This document shows, one piece after another, positions 718 through 33,392 of a stretch of 64,000 nucleotides of DNA. The stretch covers positions 55,702-119,701 of the forward strand of contig CAYMDH010000003.1 in assembly GCA_964389205.1 (NCBI GenBank). Direction: 5' to 3'. The notes beneath the pieces are model-generated. The model saw only the letters and a program-made list of their open reading frames with translations. It had not been told where the DNA came from and made no database searches. Position 1 is the stretch's first letter. Each line of letters begins with the position of its first letter. The stretch is from an uncultured Flavobacteriaceae bacterium (GTDB lineage: Bacteria; Bacteroidota; Bacteroidia; Flavobacteriales; Flavobacteriaceae). Both the position numbers and the translations under genes were made by a program.

Positions 718-2394
718 ATGAACTATCCAAAAATACAGCTTGCGCAAACCATTATACAGCTTTGTAAACTCTATGATATAAAGCATGTAGTTATTTCTCC
801 AGGATCTAGAAATGCACCACTTACTTTAGGATTTTACGAAGATAGTTTCTTTAAATTATATAGTATTGTAGACGAAAGATGTGCTGCTTTTTTTGCTTTG
901 GGAATTGCACAACAAATAAATGAAACAGTAGCTTTAGTTTGTACTTCAGGCTCAGCACTTTTAAACTATTATCCTGCCATTTCAGAAGCGTATTACAGTG
1001 ACATTCCTTTGGTTGTTATCTCTGCAGATAGACCTGCAAATAAAATAGATATTGGAGATGGACAAACCATTAGACAAAACAATGTTTTTTCAAATCACAT
1101 ATTACATTCGGTTCAATTAGATGAAAGTGAAAATCAATTAGATCAAAACGAGAAAAAAATAAATAGCGCATTAGAAGTAGCTATTTCTCAAAAAGGACCA
1201 GTACATATAAATGCTCCTTTTGAAGAACCTTTATATGAGCTAACAACTACCTTAGATGTTTTTCCTAAAAAAATAAAAAACATAGAGAATGTAAGGCCAC
1301 CTATAGATCCTACATTTTTTGTCAATCAATGGAATAGCTCAAAAAAGAAAATGGTACTTGTAGGAGTTAATGCTCCTAATACTATTTCAAAAGCATTAAT
1401 AAATTGGCTAGCACAAGATCCCTCTGTAATTGTTTTGACAGAAACAACTTCTAATTTACATCACGATAATTTCTTTCCAGCTATTGATAAAATTATAGCT
1501 CCTATAGAGTATATAACAACAGAGATTAGTAAGCTTCAACCAGATTTATTACTCACATTCGGCGGGATGGTTATATCAAAAAAAATTAAAGCTTTTCTTA
1601 GAAAATATAGCCCTAAAAATCATTTTCATATAGATGAAAAGAAAGCATACAACACTTTTTTTAATTTAAAAGATCATTTTAAAACAACTCCTAATGCTTT
1701 TTTTGAGCTAATAGTTAATAAAGTAAATCAAGTCTCAAGCACCTATAGAGAACATTGGTTATCAACCAAGGAGAATAGAAAAATTAAACACAATCAATAT
1801 CTAAAACAAACCTCTTTTTCAGATTTTTTAGCCTATGATACACTATTGAGATCAATACCAAATGATTATAATTTACAATTGAGCAATAGTTCCACAGTGC
1901 GTTATTCTCAACTGTTTGATTTAAATTCTACGGTAAAGGTATTTTGCAATAGGGGAACCAGTGGGATAGATGGAAGTACATCCACAGCTATAGGAGCCTC
2001 TATTGTTACTAAAAACCCAACTTTATTAATTACAGGAGATTTGAGTTTTTTCTACGATAGTAATGCATTATGGAATTCATACATCCCTGAAAACTTCAGA
2101 ATAATTGTATTAAATAATGGAGGAGGAGGAATATTTAGAATATTACCTGGGCCAAAAAATACAGAAAATTTTAAAACTTATTTTGAAACAAAACATGAAT
2201 TAAATGCACGTTCATTATGTGAAATGTATACTATTAATTATAGTAGTGTAACTAATAAAGCAGCATTAGATATAGCACTAAAATACTTTTTTTTAGATGA
2301 CACAAAACCAAAACTATTAGAGATTTTTACACCAAGTGAAATGAATGATAAGATTTTAATCGATTATTTTAATTATTTGAACGATAATTCATAA
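718..2394 (+). CDS. menD: 2-succinyl-5-enolpyruvyl-6-hydroxy-3-cyclohexene-1-carboxylate (SEPHCHC) synthase
   Basis: 558 aa ThDP enzyme. The N-terminus has SPGSRNAPL and CTSGSALLNYYPAI; the C-terminus has the ThDP motif GDLSFFYDSNAL...NNGGGGIF. The men cluster context agrees. Confidence 0.9.
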   Translation: MNYPKIQLAQTIIQLCKLYDIKHVVISPGSRNAPLTLGFYEDSFFKLYSIVDERCAAFFALGIAQQINETVALVCTSGSALLNYYPAISEAYYSDIPLVVISADRPANKIDIGDGQTIRQNNVFSNHILHSVQLDESENQLDQNEKKINSALEVAISQKGPVHINAPFEEPLYELTTTLDVFPKKIKNIENVRPPIDPTFFVNQWNSSKKKMVLVGVNAPNTISKALINWLAQDPSVIVLTETTSNLHHDNFFPAIDKIIAPIEYITTEISKLQPDLLLTFGGMVISKKIKAFLRKYSPKNHFHIDEKKAYNTFFNLKDHFKTTPNAFFELIVNKVNQVSSTYREHWLSTKENRKIKHNQYLKQTSFSDFLAYDTLLRSIPNDYNLQLSNSSTVRYSQLFDLNSTVKVFCNRGTSGIDGSTSTAIGASIVTKNPTLLITGDLSFFYDSNALWNSYIPENFRIIVLNNGGGGIFRILPGPKNTENFKTYFETKHELNARSLCEMYTINYSSVTNKAALDIALKYFFLDDTKPKLLEIFTPSEMNDKILIDYFNYLNDNS

Positions 2395-2471
2395 CTTTAA
2401 CGCTTACGATATCCTCCTCCAATATCAATTTTGTTCTTTTAAAATTAATTAACAATTAATATTTTCAAACT

Positions 2472-2813
2472 ATGAGTAAAAGAGATGACTTAATAGCCAA
2501 ATACGCCGCAGATCTAAAAGACAAATGCGGAGTAACTCCAGATGTTGCATTTTTAACTAAAGTAACAATTGGTTTGGGCCCTTCAATTTATAATGCAGAT
2601 TCTTCTACAGTTTCAGGATCTGATGAGAAAGAGTTAGCAACAGTAAAAAATAACTTTTTAATTAAAAAGTTAGGATTAAGTGATAGTGCAGACCTTGATA
2701 AAGCAATAGATTCTGTTATTGATACTTATGGTCGTTCAAATAGAAATAAATACAGAGCAGTAGTTTATTATTTATTAGCAAAGCATTTTAAAAAAGAAGC
2801 TGTTTATAAATAA
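2472..2813 (+). CDS. DUF2853 family protein
   Basis: 113 aa. The N-terminus (MSKRDDLIAKYAADLKDKCGVTPD) and the GPSIYNADS.TV core are recognised as DUF2853. Function is unknown. Confidence 0.65.
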   Translation: MSKRDDLIAKYAADLKDKCGVTPDVAFLTKVTIGLGPSIYNADSSTVSGSDEKELATVKNNFLIKKLGLSDSADLDKAIDSVIDTYGRSNRNKYRAVVYYLLAKHFKKEAVYK

Positions 2814-2835
2814 GATAGCTAGCCATATAAAAATA

Positions 2836-2866
2836 AAAACACTTGCATATTGCAGGTGTTTTTTTA
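2836..2866 (+). terminator. rho-independent terminator
   Basis: Hairpin ACACTTGCA-tat-TGCAGGTGT (one G-U pair) flanked by an A-run and a T-run. Confidence 0.7.
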
Positions 2867-2967
2867 TTCATTCTATTTTGTAATGATAAATAATCAATAG
2901 AAAATGTTGTTGCGATATTCAAAAGATGAATTATGTTTTAGTTAGTTTTGTAGCTTATTAAGATTTT

Positions 2968-3798
2968 ATGATAGTTATAGGAGAATATAATACCTTAGAA
3001 ATATTAAGAGATACAAGCCCTGGATTGTTTTTAGGAGATCAAGAAGGAAATGAAATACTACTTCCTAATAAATACGTACCAGAGAATTTTGAAATAGGTG
3101 ATGAGATCGAAGTTTTTTGTTATTTAGATCATGAAGAGCGCCCAGTGGCAACTAGTTTAATCCCTTTCATTACTTTAAATAACTTTGCATTGCTTAAGGC
3201 GGTATCTGTTACACATATAGGAGCTTTTATGGATTGGGGATTGGAAAAGCATTTATTTGTTCCTTTTAAAGAACAAGCTGCAAAAATGGTTGAAGGAAAA
3301 TGGTATTTAATTCATTGTTATCTTGATAAAGAGACAGAACGACTAGTAGGTTCAAGTAAAACTAATCGATTTATAAACAATGAAGAATTAAGTGTAGAAA
3401 GATTTCAAGAAGTAGATTTAATAATTTCCAGACATACAGATTTGGGAGAAGAAGTTATTATCAATAAGAAGCATAAGGGTATTTTATACAAAAATGAATT
3501 GTATAGAACATATAGTTTAGGAGAATCATTAAAAGGATATATTAAAAAAATAAGAGACGATCATAAAATTGATGTTAGCTTACAACCTATCGGGTATAAA
3601 AATATAGAACCTTCATCACAAATAATATTAGATAAACTTAAGAATAATAACGGTTTTGTTCCTCTTCATGACAAGAGTAATCCAGAGGATATAAAACATG
3701 TGCTAGAGATGAGTAAAAAGAGTTTTAAGAAAGCAATAGGATCTTTGTACAAGCAGAAAATTATTCGTATTGAAAAAAATGGTATTTATTTAAATTAA
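2968..3798 (+). CDS. S1-like RNA-binding domain protein (CvfB/YitL family)
   Basis: 276 aa with repeated S1-like modules and a C-terminal winged-helix-like segment (KKSFKKAIGSLYKQKII). Confidence 0.7.
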   Translation: MIVIGEYNTLEILRDTSPGLFLGDQEGNEILLPNKYVPENFEIGDEIEVFCYLDHEERPVATSLIPFITLNNFALLKAVSVTHIGAFMDWGLEKHLFVPFKEQAAKMVEGKWYLIHCYLDKETERLVGSSKTNRFINNEELSVERFQEVDLIISRHTDLGEEVIINKKHKGILYKNELYRTYSLGESLKGYIKKIRDDHKIDVSLQPIGYKNIEPSSQIILDKLKNNNGFVPLHDKSNPEDIKHVLEMSKKSFKKAIGSLYKQKIIRIEKNGIYLN

Positions 3799-4145
3799 AA
3801 CCTAGGGATACAAAAGCCATATCCACCACTACCAGGTATATAGTATGGACCTCCTTCAGAGGCTTTATAAACAGTATTAATGTTTTTCTGTTTTGTAGAA
3901 GTTGATTTCACTTTTATTTTTGGAATATTTGTATTTATTTCTAGACTTTTTAATGCACTTTTTTGTGTATTAGCAGTAGCCATATTGACTGTTTTTTTAT
4001 CGGAAGATAGAATACTGAAATTTGCTTTTTGAGTTGAACTATTTAAAAGCACTTTGCTTGATGCAATATTTTTAGTGCGTTTTATGTCTTGAGCATAAGA
4101 AAATGTAGAAACCCCAAAAAATAATATAAAAATATAAAACCTCAT
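3795..4145 (-). CDS. hypothetical secreted protein
   Basis: Signal-peptide-like N-terminus (MRFYIFILFFGVSTFSYAQ). No recognisable domain. Confidence 0.45.
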   Translation of the reverse strand: MRFYIFILFFGVSTFSYAQDIKRTKNIASSKVLLNSSTQKANFSILSSDKKTVNMATANTQKSALKSLEINTNIPKIKVKSTSTKQKNINTVYKASEGGPYYIPGSGGYGFCIPRF

Positions 4146-4233
4146 AGATCAAATTTTTATCAAGATACAGAATTTCTCATAGAGAAAAATGTTAATTAAC
4201 ATATAGAAACAAGTGTAAATATTGTAATAATTA

Positions 4234-4671
4234 AGCAGTTTCTTTTAGTTCTTCTTTTTTAAAATCATTTTCTAATGACTCCTGAGCCCAAATCATAGCT
4301 TCTGTTAGCGAATTAAAAGCTTCAAACCTTCGAAAGCAGAAAAGTTTTTCGACATTGAAAAAACGCCTTCTAAGTCTATCGGGTTGTACAACTCCTATTC
4401 CTTTTAAATTTTTATACTTTTTATTTACTTATGACAACGCTATAGGATTTACAGCATATGAATTAATACGATTGGAAATATAATAGACATTATCTTCATT
4501 TTCATAAAAACTGTTAACAGTATTTTTAAATTCTATAGCGTTGTCATAAGTCAATAAGATTCCTTCTTTAAATTCTGCAACAATAATATTTGAAAGTAAA
4601 TAGATAGTACCAAACTCAAAAGAATGTTCAAAAAATGTTGAATTAGCGTAGATAGAGTCTTTAAATTTCAT
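4234..4671 (-). pseudogene. STAS/SpoIIAA-like small protein gene interrupted by an in-frame TAA (complement of 4429-4431)
   Basis: The 80-aa ORF 4429..4671 ends at TAA. The same frame stays open for 65 more codons down to the TAA at 4231-4233 (VNKKYKNLKGIGVVQPDRL...AMIWAQESLE). Confidence 0.5.
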
Positions 4672-4854
4672 AATAATTTGGGTATTATTTATTGCAAATG
4701 TTATAAGTTTTTATTTTTCAATAAATTACTGTTATATTTTTTAGATAAACTGTATTATAACTTAGATGAATTCAAAAAAATATAAATTGCGAAAAGTTAT
4801 TTTTTGCTTTTTTAACGTAATCGTAAAATGTATTTTTGCTTAAAACATAAAATT

Positions 4855-5697
4855 ATGGCTCAAGTTCGATGGGAAACCGTTAAAGAATATGTAGATATTA
4901 CATATAAGAAATGTGATGGAGTAGCCAGAATAGCTTTTAATAGACCCAATGTTCGAAATGCATTTAGACCTAAAACTGTTGGAGAACTTTTTGAAGCTTT
5001 TTTAGATGCTCGTGAAGATACTTCAATAGGAGTAGTACTTTTATCAGCTGAAGGACCTTCTACTAAAGATGGAGTATTTTCTTTTTGTAGTGGTGGTGAT
5101 CAAAATGCAAGAGGACACCAAGGATATGTAGATGAAGATGGAATGCCTAGATTGAACATTCTAGAAGTACAGCGATTGATACGATTTATGCCAAAAGTGG
5201 TTATTGCAGTTGTACCTGGATGGGCTGTTGGAGGTGGACATAGTTTACATACTGTATGTGATTTGACATTAGCTAGTAAAGAGCATGCTATTTTCAAACA
5301 AACAGATGCAGATGTAACTAGCTTTGACGGCGGGTATGGTTCTGCATATCTTGCAAAAATGATAGGTCAAAAAAGAGCAAGAGAAATCTTCTTTTTGGGG
5401 AGAAACTATTCAGCACAAGATGCATTTGAAATGGGAATGGTAAATGCAGTAATACCTCATGAAGAATTAGAGACTACTGCATATCAATGGGCTTTGGAAA
5501 TTTTAGAAAAATCGCCTACTTCTATTAAAATGCTTAAGTTTGCATTTAATGCAACTGATGATGGCATGGTAGGACAGCAAGTATTTGCAGGAGAGGCTAC
5601 TAGATTAGCATATATGACAGATGAGGCAAAAGAAGGACGAAATGCCTTTTTAGAAAAAAGAAAGCCTAATTTTAAAAATATAAAATGGATTCCTTAA
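4855..5697 (+). CDS. menB: 1,4-dihydroxy-2-naphthoyl-CoA synthase
   Basis: Crotonase fold with typical MenB sequence (RIAFNRPNVRNAFRP, FCSGGDQ, VPGWAVGGGHSLH, KPNF). The start is taken at the MAQVRWE ATG rather than the upstream ATG at 4828. Confidence 0.93.
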   Translation: MAQVRWETVKEYVDITYKKCDGVARIAFNRPNVRNAFRPKTVGELFEAFLDAREDTSIGVVLLSAEGPSTKDGVFSFCSGGDQNARGHQGYVDEDGMPRLNILEVQRLIRFMPKVVIAVVPGWAVGGGHSLHTVCDLTLASKEHAIFKQTDADVTSFDGGYGSAYLAKMIGQKRAREIFFLGRNYSAQDAFEMGMVNAVIPHEELETTAYQWALEILEKSPTSIKMLKFAFNATDDGMVGQQVFAGEATRLAYMTDEAKEGRNAFLEKRKPNFKNIKWIP

Positions 5698-5710
5698 AAT
5701 AATTTATCAA

Positions 5711-6319
5711 ATGCCTTTTATAGAAGAAGATAACTTATTAGACCTATATAAAAAGATAGATAAATCTGAAGCTAACAACTTGCGGCTTCAAGATCAGATA
5801 TCATATAAAAATAGAGAAGTTACAAAAAGCGTAAAGCAGCGAAATTTTTTTGTAGTTGCAGGTGTAATATCTGTAATTATTTGTGCCATTGTTATTTCTT
5901 TTTCATTAGGCGTTAGAAATACGGTTAACAATTTAAAAGCAACTAGTGCAGACAAAGTAACAATTCCGATAGATAGTATTGAATCTCTTAAAAATAAAGC
6001 AAGAGTACTAGAAACTCAAAATACGCAATTAAATGCGGTAAGAGATTTTTACTTAGCAAAAAACTTATTAGATGGTAAAAAGATTTACACTATTCAATTA
6101 AGTGCTATAGAACAAAGTCATCTTTCTTTATTACCACTTTCTTTTAGTAACTTAAGATTGATAAAAAATAATGAATACCTATCATTATCATTAGGAGCTT
6201 TTGAAACATTAAAAGAAGCGCAAACTTTTCGATATGAACTTGTAAAGGTAGGATTTGATGAGGTCTTTATAATATCATATAAAGAAGGGAAGAGAATTCA
6301 GATTGAAGAGACTTATTAA
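5711..6319 (+). CDS. membrane-anchored protein with a SPOR-like C-terminal domain
   Basis: One TM helix (FFVVAGVISVIICAIVISF) and a coiled-coil region. The C-terminus (YTIQLSA...LSLGAFETLKEAQTF...GFDEVFII) resembles a SPOR repeat. Confidence 0.45.
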   Translation: MPFIEEDNLLDLYKKIDKSEANNLRLQDQISYKNREVTKSVKQRNFFVVAGVISVIICAIVISFSLGVRNTVNNLKATSADKVTIPIDSIESLKNKARVLETQNTQLNAVRDFYLAKNLLDGKKIYTIQLSAIEQSHLSLLPLSFSNLRLIKNNEYLSLSLGAFETLKEAQTFRYELVKVGFDEVFIISYKEGKRIQIEETY

Positions 6320-6320
6320 A

Positions 6321-7217
6321 ATGATAAAAATTAAGGCTTGGTTTTCTGCCGCCAGATTGCGCACATTGCCACTATCTGTTTCGGGAATTATAGTAGGCGG
6401 GGCATTAGCAACTTCAAACGATAATTTTGACACTACAATTTTTATATTAGCAATACTAACTACCATAGGTTTTCAAGTCATATCAAATTTTTCAAATGAT
6501 TATGGAGACGGTGTTAAAGGTACTGATAATGAAGATAGAATTGGCCCAGAACGTGCATTACAAAGCGGTATAATTTCTCCTTTAGAAATGAAAACAGCGA
6601 TTATTGCGACCACCATTATTACATTATTAATAGCAATACTTTTAATATATATATCTTTTGGTACAGCATCTTTAAATTATTTTTTAATTTTCTTATTACT
6701 TGGTATAGGGGCTATTATAGCTGCGATTAAATATACCGTAGGGAAAGATGCGTATGGATATCATGGTTATGGAGATTTATTTGTTTTCATTTTTTTTGGT
6801 TTAGTAAGTGTTTTAGGAAGTTATTTTTTGTTTACTAAAGAATTAAGCTTAGCTATTGTATTACCAGCTGTTACTATAGGTCTATTAAGCGTAACAGTAT
6901 TGAATCTTAATAATATGAGAGATCGAGAGAGTGATAAAAAAGCAGGAAAGAAAACATTAGTTGTTAAAATAGGAGCATCGTTAGCTAAAAAATATCATTT
7001 TGTAATCGTCATTCTGGCAATGCTATCAACGCTAGGGTATTCAATATTAATACAAGCAACAGAGCCTATTAACTATCTTTATGTAATAGCCTATATACCT
7101 TTAATCTTCCATTTGGCTAAGGTTTATAAAATAGAAACCCCTAAAGAGTTTGATCCAGAGTTAAAGAAAATAGCCTTAACAACCTTCATATTTGCGATCT
7201 TGTTTTCTTTTAGTTGA
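6321..7217 (+). CDS. menA: 1,4-dihydroxy-2-naphthoate polyprenyltransferase
   Basis: Polytopic UbiA-family protein with NDYGD and D-rich motifs (NNMRDRESDKKAGKKTL). The ATG at 6321 is 1 nt after the upstream stop; the ORF-track start at 6303 is a TTG overlapping that gene. Confidence 0.9.
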   Translation: MIKIKAWFSAARLRTLPLSVSGIIVGGALATSNDNFDTTIFILAILTTIGFQVISNFSNDYGDGVKGTDNEDRIGPERALQSGIISPLEMKTAIIATTIITLLIAILLIYISFGTASLNYFLIFLLLGIGAIIAAIKYTVGKDAYGYHGYGDLFVFIFFGLVSVLGSYFLFTKELSLAIVLPAVTIGLLSVTVLNLNNMRDRESDKKAGKKTLVVKIGASLAKKYHFVIVILAMLSTLGYSILIQATEPINYLYVIAYIPLIFHLAKVYKIETPKEFDPELKKIALTTFIFAILFSFS

Positions 7218-7264
7218 TATTTTTTTGTAGCTTTATTTTTTAATATTAAATTAACACTATCATT

Positions 7265-8038
7265 TTGAACGACGCCATTAGAATACTCATAGTAGAAGAT
7301 AATGTAATTATAGCAGATGATATTCAAGCTATATTAGAAGATATTGGTTATGAGATCGTTGATAATGTAATAGATTTTGAACAAGCCACTGAAGCTTTAA
7401 AAAATAATGAAGTAGACCTTGTTTTAATTGATATTATACTGGCTTCTGAAAAAACAGGAATAGATTTAGGGCATCATATCAGATCTAATTATGATATTCC
7501 GTTTATTTTTGTGACTTCAAACTCAGATAAAGCAACTGTTGAAATAGCTAAAGAAGTAAAACCAAATGGATATTTAGTGAAGCCATTTGAACAACAAGAT
7601 TTATATACTTCTATAGAAACAGCATTATCTAGTTATACTTATGGAGAAAGCCAAGAAGATAAGAAAGCTAAAGAGACATCTACAAATGTTAGTGATTCTG
7701 ATAGACAGAATGTAACCAATGCAGTTTTAAAAGATTCTATTTTTGTAAAGAAAAATAACCTTTACTATAGAATAAAATTTGATGATATTCAATTTATCAA
7801 AGCAGATAATGTTTATTTAGAAGTAAATACGGCTGATAAAACATTTTTAGTGCGATCTGCATTAAAAGATTATTTAGATAAACTTCCTTCTAATAATTTT
7901 TATAGAGCACATAAATCTTACATTGTTAACCTATCTCATATTCAAGCTGTTAATAGTAAGGATATCATGATAAAAGATGAATTGATTCCGATTTCTAAAG
8001 ATTTCAGAGAATTTATTCTATCAAGTTTAAATTCTTAA
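7265..8038 (+). CDS. two-component response regulator, REC + LytTR DNA-binding domain
   Basis: The REC domain has ILIVEDN, DLVLIDI and KP. The C-terminal LytTR domain has IQFIKADNVYLEV...FYRAHKSYIVNL. The start is TTG. Confidence 0.9.
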   Translation: MNDAIRILIVEDNVIIADDIQAILEDIGYEIVDNVIDFEQATEALKNNEVDLVLIDIILASEKTGIDLGHHIRSNYDIPFIFVTSNSDKATVEIAKEVKPNGYLVKPFEQQDLYTSIETALSSYTYGESQEDKKAKETSTNVSDSDRQNVTNAVLKDSIFVKKNNLYYRIKFDDIQFIKADNVYLEVNTADKTFLVRSALKDYLDKLPSNNFYRAHKSYIVNLSHIQAVNSKDIMIKDELIPISKDFREFILSSLNS

Positions 8039-8066
8039 AAAGTTATTAACAACATATTAACAAGTG

Positions 8067-8132
8067 TTCACCACAATTAATAAACGATTCACAACAATCT
8101 TTTCATTATTCCTTTAGACCCTCATATATTTA
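8067..8132 (+). promoter_or_regulatory. module 1: direct repeats TTCACCACA (8067) and TTCACAACA (8088), plus -7 box TATATTTA (8125)
   Basis: The two 9-mers start 21 bp apart. The -7-like box starts 29 nt after the last base of repeat 2. Modules 2 and 3 have the same geometry. Confidence 0.5.
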
Positions 8133-8137
8133 CATTG

Positions 8138-8240
8138 TATTTGTTGAGAAACAAATCTTTAGTCCACGGTCCCAAATGTTATCATGTTAAATATAAATGA
8201 TTGAAAAAACGCTTTAAGTATATACTTAAAGCGTTTTTTA
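8138..8240 (+). ncRNA. candidate small RNA 1 (about 100 nt, 5' end approximate)
   Basis: Downstream of module 1. A 5' hairpin ATTTGTT-GAGA-AACAAAT spans 8139-8156. A perfect 10-bp terminator stem (8210-8219 / 8224-8233) is followed by six T. No ORF exceeds 6 codons on this strand. Confidence 0.4.
8204..8239 (+). terminator. rho-independent terminator (A-run / perfect stem / T-run)
   Basis: AAAAAA CGCTTTAAGT atat ACTTAAAGCG TTTTTT. Confidence 0.75.
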
Positions 8241-8318
8241 ATTCTAAATACATTATAATGCATACAAACTGGTGAGAAAGGGATAAGATAAATCTGTATA
8301 AATCATTTTTTTATTGTT

Positions 8319-8384
8319 TTCACAACACTTTCAGTTAGTTACACAACAAAAATTATTTTCTGATTGAAAAACTCCCTATGTTTG
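8319..8384 (+). promoter_or_regulatory. module 2: direct repeats TTCACAACA (8319) and TACACAACA (8340), plus -7 box TATGTTTG (8377)
   Basis: The repeats are 21 bp apart. A perfect TAnnTTTG match starts 29 nt after the last base of repeat 2. Confidence 0.55.
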
Positions 8385-8389
8385 GATAG

Positions 8390-8493
8390 TGAAAATATTT
8401 TAGTTTTTATAGTGTTATTTATTACCCAGATCTCATTTTGTTATTTAATGTTTAGAATAAGTCCCGAACCCTACTTTTCGGGACTTATTTTTT
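8390..8493 (+). ncRNA. candidate small RNA 2 (about 100 nt, 5' end approximate)
   Basis: Downstream of module 2. It ends in a 13-bp perfect hairpin AATAAGTCCCGAA / TTCGGGACTTATT (8456-8489) plus a T-run. The only ORF (18 codons) runs through the terminator. Confidence 0.4.
8456..8493 (+). terminator. rho-independent terminator
   Basis: A 13-bp perfect stem, an 8-nt loop and a T-run. Confidence 0.8.
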
Positions 8494-8618
8494 ATATTAA
8501 TTAACATTAACATTTTAGAACTTTTATTTTTAATTTATTCATAATAACTATAAACCTAGTGATACGGTAAAGTTAAATAAAGAAGATTTTTGGAAGGAAA
8601 ACATGCATCTTTGACTTT

Positions 8619-8684
8619 TACGCAACAAAAAAAACAATTTACACAACAAAAATTTACCTATAGATTATAAATAGTATAGGTTTA
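8619..8684 (+). promoter_or_regulatory. module 3: direct repeats TACGCAACA (8619) and TACACAACA (8640), plus -7 box TAGGTTTA (8677), upstream of the kinase gene
   Basis: Same 21-bp and 29-nt geometry. The 16-mer TTACACAACAAAAATT is identical to the one in module 2. Confidence 0.5.
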
Positions 8685-8823
8685 CAACTAGATTAATAAT
8701 TAAAGTATTATGTTTTTTAATGATTTTATGTAAAGAAAATATTAAAAACTAATTGTTTATTAAAAACATATTTTGATTTTTTGATCGTTAAAAAAGAAAT
8801 ACTATATATCATATCCTTGGAAT

Positions 8824-10758
8824 ATGAATTTAAATAATAAAATATTAAGTGCAGCGATACTAAATTTCTTCGTGTTTATTAGTGGATGGTCCCAAACCAC
8901 TAATGACCCTCTTTTGAAGTTTCAAGAAGCGAATTCAATCGATAAACGATTTGAAATTTTCTTCAATAATGACGATAAATACGCTGTAAAATCTGCTTAC
9001 AAATGGTTAGATAAAGTATCTGAATATGCCGCTATTGCAGATAAATCAAAAGATTCTATAAGTATATTCAAATACAGAACCATTTTATCTCAAATACATC
9101 TAGATTTAGGCGATTACAAGAAAAGTGCCTTATTAGCAGAAAAGCTTTATAAAAAAGAAAAAAAAATAGACCTACCTGTTCGAAAAGCACTGTTCAAAAT
9201 ATTGGATGAATCATATGCAGTGCTAGGATTGTTTGAAAAACAATTAGAAGTGCGAAAAGAAATGAAGAAAAGTGGAGAACAGATTAAATTATATGATATC
9301 TATTCTAATTTAGGATTGCATAGGCAAGCTATGATGGATTATATAATTGAAGTTGGATCTACCGTAGATAAAAATAACTATTTTAGTGTAGCTGAATATC
9401 AAAATAATTTAGCGACCTTTTTAAGAAAAGACGGATCGACATATTCTGCTAAGAAAAAAATTGATACTGCTTTAAGTTATATCGACTTATATCTAAAAGA
9501 AGTTAATTTTAAAGATGCTCCAGAGGCTTTTAGAGATGCTGTTTTCTTAAAAGGTCTTATACAAGGAAATTTAGGTAAATGTCATATAGTACAGGAAGAA
9601 TTTGAAAAAGCAATCCCTTTGTTAGAAGCAGGAGTTTCTTCTAGTAAAGATTATGATAAAGGTAAATTTTCTTCTAGCGTAATAGGCATGTGGATAGATT
9701 TGGCAGATTCGTATTTACAATTAAATAATTCTCGTATTGCAAAATCATATTTGGATAGTATTTCATTGGTTAATGAAAACACTTATGTAGTTAATTATAA
9801 TCGATTGTTAGCAGAATATTATTTACAACAAGGAGATACAGATTCTGCTTCTTATATATTTAAAGAATATATTAAATTAAAAGACTCTGTAGATACAAAT
9901 AATAGAAAGAAAGAGCTTTTAGGTCAATTAGTGAATTTTGATTTAGAGCATCAAAAAGGAATTATCCTAAAGCAACGATTAGATTTAGAAGAAACAAAAG
10001 AACAGGTATTGCAACGCGACAAAAAAATAAACTATAGTATTATAGCATTATTATTTACCCTTGTAGGATTGGGAGCTGTAGCATACGCTTATTTTAAAAG
10101 TGTCAAGAACAAAAAACTAATTGAAGATCAAAATAAAATTATAGAAGCTTCACTTGTAGAAAAAGACTCATTGTTGAAAGAGATTCACCATAGAGTGAAA
10201 AACAATTTACAAATGGTATCGAGTCTTCTAAGCATGCAAACTAAGAATACGCGTAGTCAAGAAGCAATAGACGCTTTAGAAGAAGGAAAGAGTCGAGTAA
10301 AAGCAATGGCGCTTATTCACCAAAAATTGTATCAAAACGAAGGACTTTCTGTGATCGAAATGCAAGGTTATATAGAGTCATTAGTGAATAGTATACAATC
10401 CGTTTATAAAAAAGGAGGCCACGATGTGAATATCAATATAGATGCAGAAGGAGCAGAGTTAGACATTGATAGAGCAATACCTATAGGATTAATCTTAAAT
10501 GAATTAGTATCGAATTCATTTAAATATGCTTTTCCAAACAAAGAAGAAGGACAAATTTATATCAATATAAGAAAAGACGGAGACCTAGGTTTCTTTGAAT
10601 ATACAGATGATGGCAAAGGACTTCCGGAAGATATAGAAGAGCAAAGCAGTACTTCTATGGGAATTAAGTTAATACAACGATTAGTGAATCAATTGCGTTC
10701 AAACCTTAATATAGATAAAGATGCAAAAGGCGCTCGATTCTGGTTTGACTTTAGCTAA
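8824..10758 (+). CDS. sensor histidine kinase: signal peptide, TPR-like periplasmic region, one TM helix, HisKA_2 + HATPase_c
   Basis: H-box EIHHRVKNNLQMVSSLL (HisKA_2 type). N-box LNELVSNSFKYAF and G-box DDGKGLP. TM helix INYSIIALLFTLVGLGAVAYAYF. Confidence 0.85.
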   Translation: MNLNNKILSAAILNFFVFISGWSQTTNDPLLKFQEANSIDKRFEIFFNNDDKYAVKSAYKWLDKVSEYAAIADKSKDSISIFKYRTILSQIHLDLGDYKKSALLAEKLYKKEKKIDLPVRKALFKILDESYAVLGLFEKQLEVRKEMKKSGEQIKLYDIYSNLGLHRQAMMDYIIEVGSTVDKNNYFSVAEYQNNLATFLRKDGSTYSAKKKIDTALSYIDLYLKEVNFKDAPEAFRDAVFLKGLIQGNLGKCHIVQEEFEKAIPLLEAGVSSSKDYDKGKFSSSVIGMWIDLADSYLQLNNSRIAKSYLDSISLVNENTYVVNYNRLLAEYYLQQGDTDSASYIFKEYIKLKDSVDTNNRKKELLGQLVNFDLEHQKGIILKQRLDLEETKEQVLQRDKKINYSIIALLFTLVGLGAVAYAYFKSVKNKKLIEDQNKIIEASLVEKDSLLKEIHHRVKNNLQMVSSLLSMQTKNTRSQEAIDALEEGKSRVKAMALIHQKLYQNEGLSVIEMQGYIESLVNSIQSVYKKGGHDVNINIDAEGAELDIDRAIPIGLILNELVSNSFKYAFPNKEEGQIYINIRKDGDLGFFEYTDDGKGLPEDIEEQSSTSMGIKLIQRLVNQLRSNLNIDKDAKGARFWFDFS

Positions 10759-10884
10759 ACTAACGCACCTTGCTTTTTAAAACAAGCTTGTGTAAGAGTT
10801 TTGGAAAAAAACGCTTTACGTATACTCCAAAAATTTCTTTTTTACCAATGTAAGCTTCTTGTTTTCTTTTTTCAATAGCTTATA

Positions 10885-11553
10885 TCATTTTTTTACAAAT
10901 TTAACGACTGTCAATCCGTTTTGTGTAGCAGTATCGTTTGCTTGTTGAGCAGTCTCGTTTGCAGTTAATGCATTAATAGCAATATTTGTTTGAACAAAAC
11001 CTGGACAAATCATTGTAATAAATACACCATCTTTTTCATGCTCCATCCTTAATACATCAAAAAAACCGTGTAATGCATGTTTAGCACCACAATAACCAGA
11101 CCTGTATGGAGAACCAAACTTTCCCATTAAACTACTAACAGTAACAAAATGCCCAAATTGATGTTTTACGAAATGTGGTAATAAAGCTTTGGATAGTGCT
11201 ACTGTACCTAAATAGTCAATTTCCATTATTTTTTTATCTACAGTAAAATCTGTTTCGGCAATTAATGATCGTTGACTGACACCTCCATTATTAATTAAAA
11301 CATCTATTTTGCCAAAAAAACTAAGCGCTTTTTCAACATACGTTTTCATTCTATCAAATGCTAATAAATCTAAAGTGAGTATTTCAATATTTTTTGGAAA
11401 AGCACATTTACTTTTAACGCGAATTAACTCTTTTTCTCGTCTTGAAGAAAGTATTAATTTACAATTTTTTTTAGAGAGTTCGTAGGCAAGAGTTTCTCCT
11501 ATACCACTAGAGGCTCCGGTAATCCATATAATTTTATGATCTATAGACTTCAA
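10885..11553 (-). CDS. SDR family oxidoreductase
   Basis: TGASSGIG cofactor motif, NNGG, and the YCGAKHA catalytic motif. The start is placed at the TTG at 11553 (LKSIDHKIIWITG), because the longer track ORF (to 11652) overlaps the menC start and adds a non-SDR leader. Confidence 0.8.
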   Translation of the reverse strand: MKSIDHKIIWITGASSGIGETLAYELSKKNCKLILSSRREKELIRVKSKCAFPKNIEILTLDLLAFDRMKTYVEKALSFFGKIDVLINNGGVSQRSLIAETDFTVDKKIMEIDYLGTVALSKALLPHFVKHQFGHFVTVSSLMGKFGSPYRSGYCGAKHALHGFFDVLRMEHEKDGVFITMICPGFVQTNIAINALTANETAQQANDTATQNGLTVVKFVKK

Positions 11554-11610
11554 TAGCTTAAATTGTTTTATTCGCAGTAATTTATAATTAAATTTGCTGT
11601 AATCAAAAAG

Positions 11611-12639
11611 ATGAAAGCTACTTATAAGAAATATACACTTCACTTTAAACAACCTAGCGGTACTTCTCGAGGGATTTTAAAAACTAAAGAAACTTGGTTT
11701 ATTAGTATAGAAAAAAATAATAAATTGGGTATTGGAGAATGCGGAATGTTTAAAGGATTAAGCATAGACGATGTACCAGATTATGAAAACAAACTACAAT
11801 GGGTATGTGATAATATTAAACTTGGTCTAGATAAATTGCACGAAGAATTGGAGAGATATCCTAGTATTCGATTTGGATTAGAACAAGCTTTTTTAATGTT
11901 GGATGTAATAAAACCCTTCGAATTATTCCCTTCAGATTTTACTAAAGGAAATAGAAATATTTATATAAATGGACTTATTTGGATGGGAAAAGAAGTTTTT
12001 ATGAAATCTCAGATTGAAAAAAAACTTGAAGAAGGATACAGGTGCATAAAAATGAAGATTGGAGCTATAGATTTTGATAGCGAAATAAAACTACTTAAAT
12101 CAATTCGAAAAGACTTTAATAATGATCAAATAGAGATACGTGTAGATGCTAATGGCGCTTTTCACCCAGATACTGCTTTAGAGAAGTTGAAAAGACTATC
12201 AGACCTTAACTTACACTCTATAGAACAACCTATCAAGCAAGGGCAAATAGATAAAATGGCAGCACTGTGTTTGACATCACCATTACCCATAGCATTGGAT
12301 GAAGAATTAATAGGGGTATTTAATGTAACAAAAAAGGTAGAGTTGCTACAAATCATTCAGCCACAATATATCATTTTAAAACCTAGTTTGATAGGGGGTT
12401 ACAAAGCTTCTGAAGAGTGGATAACTATTGCAGAGAAATATAATATAGGTTGGTGGATAACAAGTGCGCTAGAAAGTAATATAGGATTAAATGCCATAGC
12501 GCAATGGACTTATTTAAAACAAAATAAAATGCCTCAAGGTTTAGGTACAGGAGCGCTTTTTACAAATAATTTTAAAAGCCCTCTTAAAGTAGTTAATGGT
12601 AGTTTGACATATAACCCTTTAGAGAAAATAGAATTTTAA
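11611..12639 (+). CDS. menC: o-succinylbenzoate synthase (enolase superfamily)
   Basis: Enolase-superfamily barrel motifs (IKMKIG, RVDANGAF, IEQP, ALDEEL). It lies in the men cluster next to menE. Confidence 0.8.
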   Translation: MKATYKKYTLHFKQPSGTSRGILKTKETWFISIEKNNKLGIGECGMFKGLSIDDVPDYENKLQWVCDNIKLGLDKLHEELERYPSIRFGLEQAFLMLDVIKPFELFPSDFTKGNRNIYINGLIWMGKEVFMKSQIEKKLEEGYRCIKMKIGAIDFDSEIKLLKSIRKDFNNDQIEIRVDANGAFHPDTALEKLKRLSDLNLHSIEQPIKQGQIDKMAALCLTSPLPIALDEELIGVFNVTKKVELLQIIQPQYIILKPSLIGGYKASEEWITIAEKYNIGWWITSALESNIGLNAIAQWTYLKQNKMPQGLGTGALFTNNFKSPLKVVNGSLTYNPLEKIEF

Positions 12640-12656
12640 TATAAAAAAACGGAATA

Positions 12657-13556
12657 ATGTATATAGAACAGGGTTTTAAAGGTGAATTAGGAAAATGGAA
12701 ATATTTTATTTTTCCGATTTTCTTTTTTGGTTTAATCGTATTAAATTTTCTAGCTATCACATTGCTTGATCTAGATACTAATGAAATAATCCAACAAGAA
12801 ATAGAAAACAAAGGAGAAAATAGATTTTTAGTAGAGACTCTGATACCTTTTACAATAGGGTTAGGAATATTATTATTTTGGGTTAAGTATGTTCATAAAC
12901 AAACACTAGCGTCATTAACAACTGCTAGAAATAAAGTAAATTGGAAACGAGTTTTTTTTGCTTTTGGATTGTGGGGGCTTATTACAGCAGCAATGATTTT
13001 TATAGATTATTATATGGCTCCAGAAAAGTATTTATTAAATTTTGATTTACAATCATTTTTGATATTGGCAGTCATAGGAGTTCTTTTAATTCCTTTACAA
13101 ACAAGTTTTGAAGAATATCTTTTTAGAGGATATTTAATGCAGGGTATTGGGATATTAGTAAGAAATAGATGGTTTCCGTTACTACTTACTTCTTTAATTT
13201 TTGGATTGTTACATATTGCAAATCCTGAAGTAGAAAAAATAGGCTATATCATTATGGTGTATTATATAGGAACAGGCTTGTTTTTAGGGATCATTACCTT
13301 AATGGATGATGGGATAGAACTAGCGCTTGGATTTCATGCTGCCAATAATTTGGTTTCAGCACTTTTAGTAACAGCAGACTGGACTGCATTCCAAACTAAT
13401 TCTGTTTTTAAAGATATTTCAGAACCAATTGCAGGATGGGACATTATCATACCAGTGGTGATAGTATATCCAATATTGATTTTCATTTTTGCTAAGAAAT
13501 ATAAATGGTCTGGATGGAAAGATAAACTGTTTGGAAAAGTAAGCACTCCTGTTTAA
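12657..13556 (+). CDS. CPBP family intramembrane glutamic endopeptidase (CAAX/Abi-like)
   Basis: Polytopic membrane protein with the EEYLFRGYL and FGLLH motifs plus a HAANN-type third motif. Confidence 0.85.
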   Translation: MYIEQGFKGELGKWKYFIFPIFFFGLIVLNFLAITLLDLDTNEIIQQEIENKGENRFLVETLIPFTIGLGILLFWVKYVHKQTLASLTTARNKVNWKRVFFAFGLWGLITAAMIFIDYYMAPEKYLLNFDLQSFLILAVIGVLLIPLQTSFEEYLFRGYLMQGIGILVRNRWFPLLLTSLIFGLLHIANPEVEKIGYIIMVYYIGTGLFLGIITLMDDGIELALGFHAANNLVSALLVTADWTAFQTNSVFKDISEPIAGWDIIIPVVIVYPILIFIFAKKYKWSGWKDKLFGKVSTPV

Positions 13557-30896: not shown

Positions 30897-33392
30897 CTAA
30901 GGAGTGCCAAATTCTTCATCACCACCATCATTGTTTTGTTGTGACCCTCTATTTCTCCGTTGTGAATCTCTTTTGCTTTGGTTAAACCTATACGTGAAAG
31001 TTAAAGTTGCTTGTGTTTGTCTAAATTGAAATTCGCTATCAATAAAATTAAACTCAGTAGTTGTTTCGCTTCTTCTTATGGCAGAGTTAAAAACGTCACT
31101 AACGTTTAATGATAGGGTTCCTTTATCTTTTAATATATCCTTACTAAAAGCAAGATTTAATGAAAACAACCCTAATCTTTCTGATTGAGCATTTTCACTT
31201 GGTCCTCTATAGAAAAAACGAGTTTGCCAGCTTATCTTAGAGGGGAGTGTTATTGTAGAGTTTACCCTTGCAAACCAACTTATGTTGGTATTGTCAAAAT
31301 TTTGAAAGAATTCTGTACCATCATTATTTACAAAAGTAAAATCACCATCAGTTTCAGAATAGAAGAGATTAATATTTCCATTAAGTCGCCACCATTTATA
31401 AGGGTTATATGATAATGTAGCTTCTATACCATAGCGATCATTTGTAGATAGGTTTGTAGGGAATCGTATGTTAATCAAATCTCCATTATCTGTTCTTTGA
31501 TCAGGATCTGTAAATGTAATAAATTGAAATACATCGGTAGATCTTTGATAAAATATAGATCCATTTAATGTAAATTCCTTCCAACGTTTGATATAACTAA
31601 AATCGAGTGCATTTGTAAAAGCAGGTTGAATGTCTGGATTTCCTTGAAATAGATTAGATTCACTGCTTCTAGACGGGAAAGGATTTATAAAACGTGATCT
31701 GGGCCTTCTTATTCGTCTATTAAATCCTAATGTAATACTAGTTTTTTCGTCAAACTCATAGCCTAAGTTTATGGTAGGAAAAAGACTTGTGTAATTTTGC
31801 GTAGAAATATCGTTAGTAGTTACCTGATCAACAACAACATTTGTAATTTCAGTACGTAAGCCTAGTAAATAAGAAAATTTACCTGTTTTGCTTCCAAATT
31901 GAGAATAAAAGGCATTGACATCTTCATCATAAATCAATCGATTGGACAGATTGAGATCTCTATCTAATATACCTGTGTTAATATTTAAAGTATCTACACT
32001 AAAATCTGTATCCAACTCTCTGAAATTACCTCTATAACCTGCTTCAAATTGACTTTCTTTCCCAATAGGTAGTACATAATCAACTTGAAGAAGAAGTCTA
32101 TCTTGTTCTTCTAAGGTAGTTACGTTTTCTAATTCATCGGGAGTATTAGCAATAAATTCTTCCTCAGTAATTATTGAAAACTCATCTTCGGTGCTTTTTT
32201 CAGTTTGAAAATCTACAGTAAGCTTATGACCTTCCTTTTTGAAGTTTTGTATATAATTAAACGAATACTGAAAAGTTTCATCATCTTCGTCTTCGTCATC
32301 AATTCTTAAACTCCGGCTTGTTAAAGTTCTATTTGGATCAAATCGTAACGTATTATTATCTGTAAGTGACCCGTTATCACTATTTCTATACAATACTGAA
32401 TTTGTAATTGTAATTTTGTCGGAAAGAAAGTATTCGAAACCAAAGTTGGTATTAAACCCATTTCTAGTTCTGTCAAAATCTCTATCTTCTTCTATAAAAC
32501 GATTGTCACTAAAAAAATTTTCTGAGTTGTTTTCTGCATTACTGGGAATTTCTCTATAATTATATCCGGATGTATTAAAAAGATTAAAGTTTTTAGTTCT
32601 GTAATTTAAATTTATAGAAACTCTATGATTATCAGGAATTCCTGTACTGGCAGAAATAGATCCGTTAAGCCCTTTTGCTTTTCCTCTCTTAAGAATGATA
32701 TTTAAAATACCTGCAGTCCCTTCTGCATCGTAACGTGCAGATGGAGATGTGATTACCTCTACTTTCTCAATAGCATCAGCTGGGAGTTGGCGTAAAACTT
32801 CTGTAGAGCTTAAACCTACCAAACCAGAAGGTTTCCCATTGATTAGAATACGAACGTTATCATTTCCTCTTAACGAAATATTACCTTCTACATCTACAGA
32901 TACTGAAGGAACATTATCCAAAACATCTGTAACAGTACCACCTCTAACTGTGAGATCTTTCCCTACATTATAGATTTTTTTATCTAACCTAATTTCTACT
33001 TGAGAACGTTCTGCAATAACTTCGACGCCTTCTAAAGCAGCAACATCAATTTCAAGAGAAAAACGACCTAAATCTGTAGAGGTTCTAATTTGTTTTGCTT
33101 TAACCTCAATAGATTTAAAGGTTATATATTCTATTTTTATATCATAAGGACCTGGAAATATTTCAATTTCAAAAAAACCTTTTTCATCGGTAATGGCTCC
33201 GGTTAGTATTTTTGTTCTTCGAGTGTGTTGCAGGCTAATAGTTGCATATTCTAACGGCGTATTTGTTTCTTTATCGATTACCTGACCGCTTACTTTTATT
33301 TTGGATATGTTGGGACGTTGTTGCGCATTACTTTGGATAATAGTTCCTATTATTACCAAAAAAGTATAAATGCTTTTTTTCATTAATAGCAA
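30897..33392 (-). CDS. TonB-dependent outer-membrane receptor-like beta-barrel protein (CarboxypepD_reg + plug + barrel)
   Basis: N-terminus has VSGQVIDKETNTPLEYATI and plug motifs (VPSVSVD.EGNISLRG, ILINGKP, IEKVEVITSPSARYDAEG). A long barrel ends in TFTYRF, followed by a 28-aa charged extension. Confidence 0.8.
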   Translation of the reverse strand: MLLMKKSIYTFLVIIGTIIQSNAQQRPNISKIKVSGQVIDKETNTPLEYATISLQHTRRTKILTGAITDEKGFFEIEIFPGPYDIKIEYITFKSIEVKAKQIRTSTDLGRFSLEIDVAALEGVEVIAERSQVEIRLDKKIYNVGKDLTVRGGTVTDVLDNVPSVSVDVEGNISLRGNDNVRILINGKPSGLVGLSSTEVLRQLPADAIEKVEVITSPSARYDAEGTAGILNIILKRGKAKGLNGSISASTGIPDNHRVSINLNYRTKNFNLFNTSGYNYREIPSNAENNSENFFSDNRFIEEDRDFDRTRNGFNTNFGFEYFLSDKITITNSVLYRNSDNGSLTDNNTLRFDPNRTLTSRSLRIDDEDEDDETFQYSFNYIQNFKKEGHKLTVDFQTEKSTEDEFSIITEEEFIANTPDELENVTTLEEQDRLLLQVDYVLPIGKESQFEAGYRGNFRELDTDFSVDTLNINTGILDRDLNLSNRLIYDEDVNAFYSQFGSKTGKFSYLLGLRTEITNVVVDQVTTNDISTQNYTSLFPTINLGYEFDEKTSITLGFNRRIRRPRSRFINPFPSRSSESNLFQGNPDIQPAFTNALDFSYIKRWKEFTLNGSIFYQRSTDVFQFITFTDPDQRTDNGDLINIRFPTNLSTNDRYGIEATLSYNPYKWWRLNGNINLFYSETDGDFTFVNNDGTEFFQNFDNTNISWFARVNSTITLPSKISWQTRFFYRGPSENAQSERLGLFSLNLAFSKDILKDKGTLSLNVSDVFNSAIRRSETTTEFNFIDSEFQFRQTQATLTFTYRFNQSKRDSQRRNRGSQQNNDGGDEEFGTP

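Follow-up and report, generated by a model that had tools for sequence, protein, structure and literature searches.

Repeat modules of LytTR operator geometry between a response regulator gene and a sensor kinase gene of Flavobacteriaceae, and the small RNAs that they may control

The response regulator and sensor kinase genes

In a stretch of 64,000 nucleotides (nt) from an uncultured Flavobacteriaceae bacterium (contig CAYMDH010000003.1; here called the window, to which coordinates refer unless stated otherwise), the genes for a LytTR response regulator and a sensor kinase follow each other on the plus strand, and the gap between them holds three modules built of paired direct repeats and a promoter-like box. 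An earlier reading of the bare sequence, the original prediction, had proposed these modules as operator/promoter units of the regulator, and they are the subject of this study. The region 7100-9100 was read directly. The regulator gene (7265..8038, plus strand) encodes 257 amino acids with a REC and a LytTR domain; the Pfam scores of 72.7 bits for Response_reg and 66.3 bits for LytTR (PF04397) both exceed the cutoffs, and among LytTR domains of solved structure 3d6w and 4cbv (ComE) were weakly matched. Orthologs were found in 80 genomes, and the TTG start codon of the gene is kept in nearly all of them (TTGGAACAACC…). Directly after the stop codon of the preceding menA gene lies TAGCTTTA (7228..7235, plus strand), a putative sigma-A -7 box of the regulator's own promoter, and the equivalent box in most of the 80 loci is a conserved TTTTTTGTAATTTTG.

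The kinase gene (8824..10758, plus strand) encodes 644 amino acids. Pfam and hydropathy analysis showed an N-terminal signal or anchor sequence, an extracytoplasmic TPR region of ~380 amino acids, a single internal transmembrane helix at residues ~402-425 and the HisKA_2 and HATPase_c domains. For neither protein did NCBIfam return an equivalog at cutoff.

Three modules in the gap between the two genes

Each module consists of two 9-mers that start 21 base pairs (bp) apart and of a TAnnTTT(G/A) box that begins 29 nt past the last base of the second repeat. TAnnTTTG is the -7 element of the primary sigma factor of Bacteroidota. Module 1 has the operator TTCACCACA-N12-TTCACAACA at 8067..8096 (repeats at 8067 and 8088) and the box TATATTTA at 8125..8132. 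The operator of module 2, TTCACAACA-N12-TACACAACA, is located at 8319..8348 (repeats at 8319 and 8340) and its box TATGTTTG at 8377..8384, and module 3 has TACGCAACA-N12-TACACAACA at 8619..8648 (repeats at 8619 and 8640) with the box TAGGTTTA at 8677..8684. All three are on the plus strand. The operators were identified by a pattern scan and cross-genome alignment and the boxes by direct reading, and the +29 offset is conserved across genomes. The repeat coordinates, the 21-bp distance and the position of the boxes had been given correctly in the original prediction, and its view that this is a conserved motif and not a duplicated segment was borne out, since the units are only 35-40% identical outside the motifs, compared with 31% expected by chance.

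The region is AT-rich and intergenic, where chance matches or functionless remnants of a local duplication might be suspected. The pattern TWCRCMACA-N12-TWCRCMACA, however, has 3 exact matches in the 64-kb window, whereas 0.00 were expected from 100 dinucleotide shuffles, and a chance origin of the three modules is excluded. The single 9-mer occurs in 6 copies in 64 kb (2.46 expected), all six of them members of the three pairs. Together with the background identity outside the motifs and with the conservation of the motifs across genera, where the spacers have diverged, this makes an explanation by chance or by duplication practically negligible.

When the scan was relaxed, an additional half-site with 1 mismatch, TTAACAACA, was detected at 8046..8054 on the plus strand, 21 bp in phase with module 1. 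Three phased repeats are thus present at this module, and equivalents were seen in the closest relatives L001 (5785) and L002 (5771); the third half-site may serve higher-order or cooperative binding. The only other relaxed match in the window, TTCACAACG-N12-GTCACAACA with 2 mismatches at 30937-30966 on the minus strand, was judged non-functional, because it lies within coding sequence, at the 3' end of an open reading frame (ORF) of 831 amino acids resembling a TonB-dependent receptor (30897-33392), and has no -7 box at +29.

Conservation of the modules among Flavobacteriaceae

A search of the genome collection with the regulator yielded 80 Flavobacteriaceae loci with a regulator identity of 72-81%, from Leptobacterium, Maribacter, Cellulophaga, Muriicola, Eudoraea, Robiginitalea, Pricia, Sediminicola, Croceitalea and other genera. 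The orthologous intergenic regions were aligned, as the original prediction had suggested, and the motif proved to be conserved in most relatives that carry the same regulator. In its strict form it is found in most of the 80 loci, confined to the gap between the regulator and the kinase gene and on the sense strand only. When up to 2 mismatches were allowed, 1-5 modules were present in this gap in 77 of the 80 loci. This amounts to 125 modules in 54.5 kb of gap sequence versus 5 in the remaining ~773 kb, both strands included.

The spacing between the repeats is 12 bp in 125 of 125 gap modules, and TAnnTT is found at +29 in 111 of them. In an alignment of 70 sites, conservation was limited to the repeats, a short run rich in A and T behind each of them, and TAnnTTTG at its fixed offset. 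The commonest forms of the box are TATTTTTG, TAATTTTG and TACTTTTG. The predicted start site, 5 nt past the end of the box, is a purine in 100 of 114 modules, which fits the flavobacterial sigma-A -7 box, known to occupy -12..-5 (PMC9723704). With this predicted start, the second repeat would end at about -41, 29 nt ahead of the box and hence just upstream of the -33 region. No -33 element was apparent among the gap modules of the 80 genomes, where TTG reaches at most 6% at any spacer position; this is consistent with activator dependence.

Predicted small RNAs downstream of modules 1 and 2

A terminator scan showed strong intrinsic terminators after modules 1 and 2. Module 1 is followed by a predicted small RNA (sRNA), sRNA-1 (8137..8241, plus strand), with a 5' hairpin (8139-8156), the unpaired core GGUCCCAAAUGUUAUCAUG (~8168-8186) and a palindromic terminator (8204-8239) with a U tract. 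The predicted sRNA-2 after module 2 (8389..8493, plus strand) has a terminator at 8454-8491, also with a U tract. Both have a 5' hairpin, an unpaired middle part and the terminator, and their folding energies gave z scores of -4.6 and -4.7, respectively. The predicted leader of the kinase mRNA after module 3 (8689..8823, plus strand) has no terminator and no significant structure (z = -1.2 for 8689-8830). Kinase-proximal modules comparable to module 3 were found in L001, L002, L020, the Eudoraea group and others.

In most modules of the other genomes, too, a terminator follows 50-110 nt downstream, and the transcripts fall into two families. The A-type has a short 5' hairpin and CCCAAAUCUUAUCAUU, the B-type an AU-rich 5' part and UUUUUCAUUUUCAUAUAGUGUUCUCG. 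A frequent order in loci with several modules is regulator, module with B, module with A and kinase, the latter sometimes with a module of its own, and in Sediminicola and Cellulophaga one RNA carries both cores. sRNA-1 of the window is of the A-type. sRNA-2 is a hybrid in which the B-like element UAUAGUGUUA is followed by the A-like element CCCAGAUCUCAUUUUG, an arrangement common to L001 (module 6682) and L002 (module 6048). A regex-based search for the cores in 1.69 Mb of sequence found a module at a short, constrained distance upstream of 55 of 57 A-cores and 86 of 87 B-cores. RNAalifold predicted the terminator helix only, with compensatory double changes at 9 of the 12 base pairs for the B family and 9 of the 10 for the A family, and the cores are conserved and unpaired. 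No match at the gathering threshold was obtained with Rfam in 12 loci, and permissive thresholds gave only sub-threshold noise for the window (7900-9000) and for L055 (5750-6600). The two sRNA families, as predicted here, appear to be widely conserved, absent from Rfam and previously undescribed.

Two side observations concern sRNA-1. Its terminator is a perfect 36-nt palindrome between an A tract and a T tract (AAAAAACGCTTTAAGTATATACTTAAAGCGTTTTTT), and this symmetry suggests that it could work in both directions. The coding sequence of the kinase holds TGGTCCCAAACC at 8884-8897, which shares the sense-strand element GGUCCCAAA with the sRNA-1 core (8168-8176). It encodes …WSQT… past the signal peptide and was not conserved in the orthologs inspected by eye; the sharing is probably a coincidence, although the same partner RNA could have a second site here.

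Peptide genes are the classical targets of LytTR regulators, and the short transcripts might accordingly code for small peptides (pheromones or bacteriocins, for instance), like those of the classical LytTR quorum-sensing loci. One metagenomic module, described below, does precede a peptide with a double-glycine-like leader. Yet an ATG-initiated ORF of at least 8 codons is present in just 9 of 85 A-type and 2 of 73 B-type transcripts, none of these ORFs is kept across lineages, and the conserved cores contain no start codons. We regard a peptide product as very improbable. The transcripts have their own predicted promoter, an intrinsic terminator, a conserved unpaired seed and no conserved ORF, as is expected of trans-acting sRNAs.

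A second possibility is that the short transcripts act in cis, as leaders or attenuators that control read-through into the kinase gene, or serve as decoys near the promoter. In many genomes (e.g. L007 and L013) a terminator, and no other recognisable module, stands between the last module and the kinase gene, so that kinase expression might need read-through. In the window and its clade, however, the kinase has its own module 3. Moreover, the cores of ~30 nt are unpaired and conserved far beyond what an attenuator needs, a module with an sRNA exists away from any kinase gene, beside an HTH/S24 repressor gene (L085, L103 and apparently L190), and there is complementarity between the A-core and another sRNA. 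A purely cis-acting role is therefore rather unlikely, and trans-acting sRNAs are the preferred reading.

Putative targets of the sRNA cores were searched by comparative duplex prediction in the start regions of the neighbouring genes, with the result given in the Discussion, and two single matches were rejected. A pairing of the core with the regulator's own start region (AACACTAT) exists in the window only and is not conserved, and the target-like AATGATAAAATTTTG at window 2344, about 3 kb upstream, belongs to the 3' end of the menD coding sequence, which is conserved.

Modules away from the regulator-kinase gap

A metagenome scan for the full module returned 112 sites, and 95 of these were in the canonical context between the regulator and the kinase gene. 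In L085 (module 3079) and L103 (module 14672) a module and an A-type sRNA are located beside an HTH_3/Peptidase_S24 (LexA/CI-like) repressor gene, showing that the unit of module and sRNA is separable from the regulator-kinase pair. L190 (module 2755) has the same flanking ORFs and module, and its contig ends just past the -7 box, before the sRNA. This copy may be relocated or mobile. L115 has both sRNAs on a contig too short to show flanking genes.

L093, L122, L157 and L192 encode a paralogous LytTR regulator (241 amino acids, 40% identical) and a HisKA_2 kinase of 655 amino acids. This pair is followed by TTCACAACA-N12-TTCACAACA with a -7 box, a gene for a hemerythrin (PF01814) of 135 amino acids and a MORN-repeat protein (L093 module 3430, in module-sense orientation). 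The hemerythrin system suggests an iron/oxygen theme for this subfamily of LytTR regulators. In L089 (module 10561, module-sense orientation), from a different organism, the module lies ahead of a short ORF, MKHRNTENKNTLDQLKKMGSLTPLTEDQQLSTVGGVAG…, that resembles a peptide with a double-glycine leader. In L084, L120 and L142 it precedes a gene for a secreted protein (MDFKKLF…QVKIGENPNSINAAS…), downstream of a gene for a CHU_C/type IX secretion system (T9SS)-sorted protein, and this may be another target class of a related regulator. The site in L149 was discarded as a tandem-repeat artefact. Because paralogous and other-context sites carry the motif, the half-site seems, from these sequences, to be common to a subfamily of Bacteroidota LytTR regulators.

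This raises the question of whether the modules are real operators that are read by another protein, a paralogous LytTR regulator or some other factor, and lie next to this regulator by genomic linkage only. Many LytTR regulators are encoded by flavobacteria, the TTCACAACA-N12-TTCACAACA site adjoins the paralogous pair of the hemerythrin system, and some contigs have the motif before unrelated genes. Against this, the modules follow this regulator ortholog in 77 of the 80 genomes and at 95 of the 112 metagenomic sites. The regulator is also unusually conserved across the loci (~74% identity, compared with ~55% for menA and ~50% for the syntenic kinase orthologs), as expected of a protein that co-evolves with fixed DNA sites, and in the paralogous system the motif is again found beside its own regulator. 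Reading of the modules by another protein is thus unlikely, and the adjacent regulator is the preferred candidate.

Genomic surroundings

The gene pair is embedded in menaquinone genes, with menD at 718-2394, a menB-like gene at 4828-5697, menA at 6303-7217 and menC at 11611-12639 (cluster 718-13556 of the window). The neighbours also include an SDR gene, a CAAX protease gene and an ORF of 202 amino acids of unknown family. The order menB, 202-amino-acid ORF, menA, regulator, gap, kinase, (SDR), menC and CAAX is syntenic across all 80 genomes. Features of agr- or com-type peptide quorum sensing were looked for at the locus, and no autoinducer peptide gene, no processing or exporter gene, no multi-pass kinase of the HPK10 type and no conserved small ORF were found.

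Complementarity of the A-type core to Rfp13

Rfp13 is a 73-nt sRNA of F. psychrophilum whose gene (208062-208134, minus strand) runs towards the 3' end of sodA in convergent orientation. It is listed as 'induced under iron depletion' and has conserved counterparts in F. johnsoniae, F. columnare, Cellulophaga algicola and Zobellia galactanivorans (PMC9723704 supplement). Its unpaired stretch …CAUGGUAAGAUUUGGGG… is a near-perfect complement of the A-type core. Pairing was analysed for the unpaired regions only; duplex folding of the full-length sRNAs with Rfp13 was uninformative because of pairing between the terminators. In the canonical examples listed, the A-cores form 13-17 contiguous base pairs with the Rfp13 seeds of Zobellia and Cellulophaga at about -20 to -25 kcal/mol. 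For 71 cores the mean z score was -4.9 against 4000 random genomic 26-mers and 51% of the cores were better than the best random window, for a complementarity that was found post hoc and with Rfp13 sequences from other genomes than those of the cores. B-cores did not pair (z = +0.26). The window sRNA-1 pairs with the Rfp13 seed at -21.1 kcal/mol with one central mismatch. When the 1.69 Mb were searched on both strands for exact complements of at least 13 nt to the whole of Rfp13, the matches lay in module-driven sRNAs in 14 of 14 and 14 of 16 cases, and these were all on the Rfp13 seed.

These results raise the possibility, which we put clearly below an even chance, that the A-type sRNA (sRNA-1 in the window) acts as a sponge or antisense partner for the Rfp13 family of iron-starvation sRNAs. 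In this scheme 13-17 contiguous base pairs would form between the core CCCCAAAUCUUAUCAUU and the unpaired Rfp13 seed (…AUGGUAAGAUUUGGGG…), and an envelope-sensing two-component system encoded in a menaquinone cluster would thereby override or tune the iron-sparing response. The hemerythrin-driving paralogous system points to the same iron/oxygen theme.

No Rfp13-like gene was found in the window or in any of the loci searched. In the clade of the window (Leptobacterium, strain R38) the core has CCCAAAUGUUAU in place of CCCAAAUCUUAU, a C-to-G change. A compensatory AUAACAUUUGGG in the Rfp13 of this clade would be a strong covariation sign for the pairing, and an unchanged AUAAGAUUUGGG would leave a weaker case. 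The sRNA cores and TTCACAACA were not found in the accessible portions of the supplements to the F. psychrophilum atlas of transcription start sites and sRNAs. IroR of B. thetaiotaomicron (preprint) was considered and set aside, having no stated relation to Rfp13 or to the module-driven sRNAs.

Discussion

LytTR regulators include AgrA, ComE, PlnC/D, BlpR and AlgR. The sites of ComE consist of two imperfect 9-bp direct repeats with a 12-mer linker and are bound by tandem LytTR domains (PMC4005675), and LytTR repeats in general usually have a spacing of 12 bp, are found 4-11 bp ahead of the -35 element and take part in autoregulation (PMC6193735). The modules described here have the same geometry, with direct repeats of about 9 bp and a spacing of 12 bp. 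Their tracking of the regulator ortholog through genomes and metagenomes, their sense-strand orientation, the invariant spacing, the -7 box at +29 and the match to the defined LytTR operators all support the proposal that they are operator/promoter units of the adjacent regulator.

The role assigned to module 3 in the original prediction, as the promoter of the kinase gene, likewise gained support: no terminator separates the two, similar kinase-proximal modules exist in other genera, and the regulator gene has a separate putative promoter of its own. The terminated small RNAs of modules 1 and 2 had not been recognised. The idea of a compact regulon of three promoters holds for the three modules, and its completeness cannot be established from 64 kb, since the same module with an sRNA is found elsewhere in other lineages. 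In agreement with the novelty that had been claimed, a literature search found no LytTR operator, LytTR regulon or such sRNAs described for Flavobacteriia or Bacteroidota. The observation is real, and the interpretation is supported and extended.

We estimate a probability of roughly 0.78 that the modules are three activator-dependent sigma-A promoters, which would be bound by the adjacent regulator and drive two sRNAs and the kinase gene. The regulator would be expressed from its own, constitutive-looking promoter and would be phosphorylated by the TPR/HisKA_2 kinase in response to a presumed signal in the envelope. Most likely, a tandem dimer of the phosphorylated regulator would then occupy the repeats from one face of the DNA and recruit RNA polymerase. 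The predicted promoter has the consensus operator TTCACAACA-N12-TACACAACA with the repeats at about -70..-62 and -49..-41, TAnnTTTG at -12..-5 and no -33 element. From module 1 an sRNA of ~105 nt (8137-8241) would be made and from module 2 a second one of ~105 nt (8389-8493), while module 3 would drive the kinase gene and close a positive feedback loop. With their 5' hairpin, conserved unpaired core and intrinsic terminator the sRNAs probably act by base-pairing in trans.

Several points weigh against this interpretation. Regulator binding and the transcripts are predictions from sequence. F. psychrophilum, the one relative with a map of transcription start sites, does not have this locus and carries a peptidase gene after menA instead of the two-component pair. 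At least one paralogous regulator uses this repeat motif, which also lies ahead of unrelated genes in some metagenomic contigs, and this leaves formal room for cross-talk or a different cognate regulator. sRNA-2 of the window is a divergent and rearranged member of its family. The comparative duplex prediction for the sRNA cores pointed to no mRNA target among the neighbouring genes, with mean z scores of only -0.9 to +1.4 in the start regions of the regulator, kinase, menA, menB, menC, 202-amino-acid ORF, SDR and CAAX genes. Finally, many Maribacter loci (e.g. L008, L009, L011, L044, L049-L051 and L059) have a single module and no recognisable A or B core downstream. In L008, L009 and L011 the module appears to drive the kinase directly via a leader of ~100 nt, and in some other Maribacter loci a further CACAACA element is present ~150 nt downstream of the module. 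It seems that Maribacter has remodelled the output of the system.

In Staphylococcus aureus, the LytTR regulator AgrA acts on paired direct repeats, and one promoter feeds back on the signalling genes while another drives the 514-nt RNAIII. The modules resemble the AgrA P2/P3-RNAIII arrangement in the paired repeats just upstream of the promoter core, the predicted feedback on the sensor and the predicted regulatory RNA output. In contrast to agr, the locus has no autoinducing peptide, no AgrB-like processing gene and no HPK10 kinase; its kinase belongs to the TPR/HisKA_2 type and has a large extracytoplasmic domain. Of the signalling genes only the kinase is under a module, the regulator having a putative promoter of its own. 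Two predicted sRNAs of ~80-105 nt take the place of RNAIII with its 514 nt, the promoters have a Bacteroidota -7 box and the half-site sequence (TTCACAACA) differs.

ComE of S. pneumoniae (comCDE/comAB/comX), PlnC/D and BlpR share the two imperfect 9-bp repeats with a 12-mer and what is predicted here, a tandem LytTR dimer and autoregulation (PMC4005675), but respond to peptide pheromones and control protein-coding operons, whereas the putative outputs here are non-coding RNAs and a kinase, with no peptide or exporter genes nearby. HdrRM and BrsRM of S. mutans also have direct repeats with a 12-bp spacing that lie 4-11 bp ahead of the -35 element and, as proposed for the present locus, positive-feedback autoregulation (PMC6193735); those regulators have no receiver domain and are paired with a membrane inhibitor, unlike the canonical REC-LytTR regulator and histidine kinase found here. 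Rfp13, finally, is like the predicted sRNAs a small flavobacterial RNA composed of a 5' hairpin, a conserved stretch without pairing and a terminator, and it is kept in Cellulophaga and Zobellia. It is not homologous to the predicted sRNAs; its unpaired stretch complements the A-type core, its gene is a neighbour of sodA in F. psychrophilum, and in the available data it has no LytTR module.

The operator thus belongs to the known LytTR kind and appears to be new for Flavobacteriia. New as well, as far as can be read from the genomes, would be a two-component gene pair that is split by its own sRNA targets, family-wide, with promoters of the Bacteroidota type, no peptide signal and a possible action on an iron-starvation sRNA.

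Flavobacteriia are major marine polysaccharide degraders and fish pathogens, and their gene regulation is poorly mapped. No LytTR operator or regulon seems to be established for them, although they encode many LytTR regulators. For Bacteroidota sRNAs we know of no Hfq or ProQ paradigms and of few sRNAs with a known upstream regulator. The motif TTCACAACA-N12-TACACAACA, 29 nt ahead of TAnnTTTG, provides a precise recognition motif that is usable for the prediction of regulons genome-wide. The modules also point to two new sRNA families whose transcription would be wired to a conserved two-component system, following an agr-like logic of regulatory RNA output and sensor feedback without peptide quorum sensing. 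The complementarity to Rfp13 offers a concrete hypothesis that ties the system to iron and respiration and, if it is true, Bacteroidota would have a first example of an sRNA sponge circuit under two-component control.

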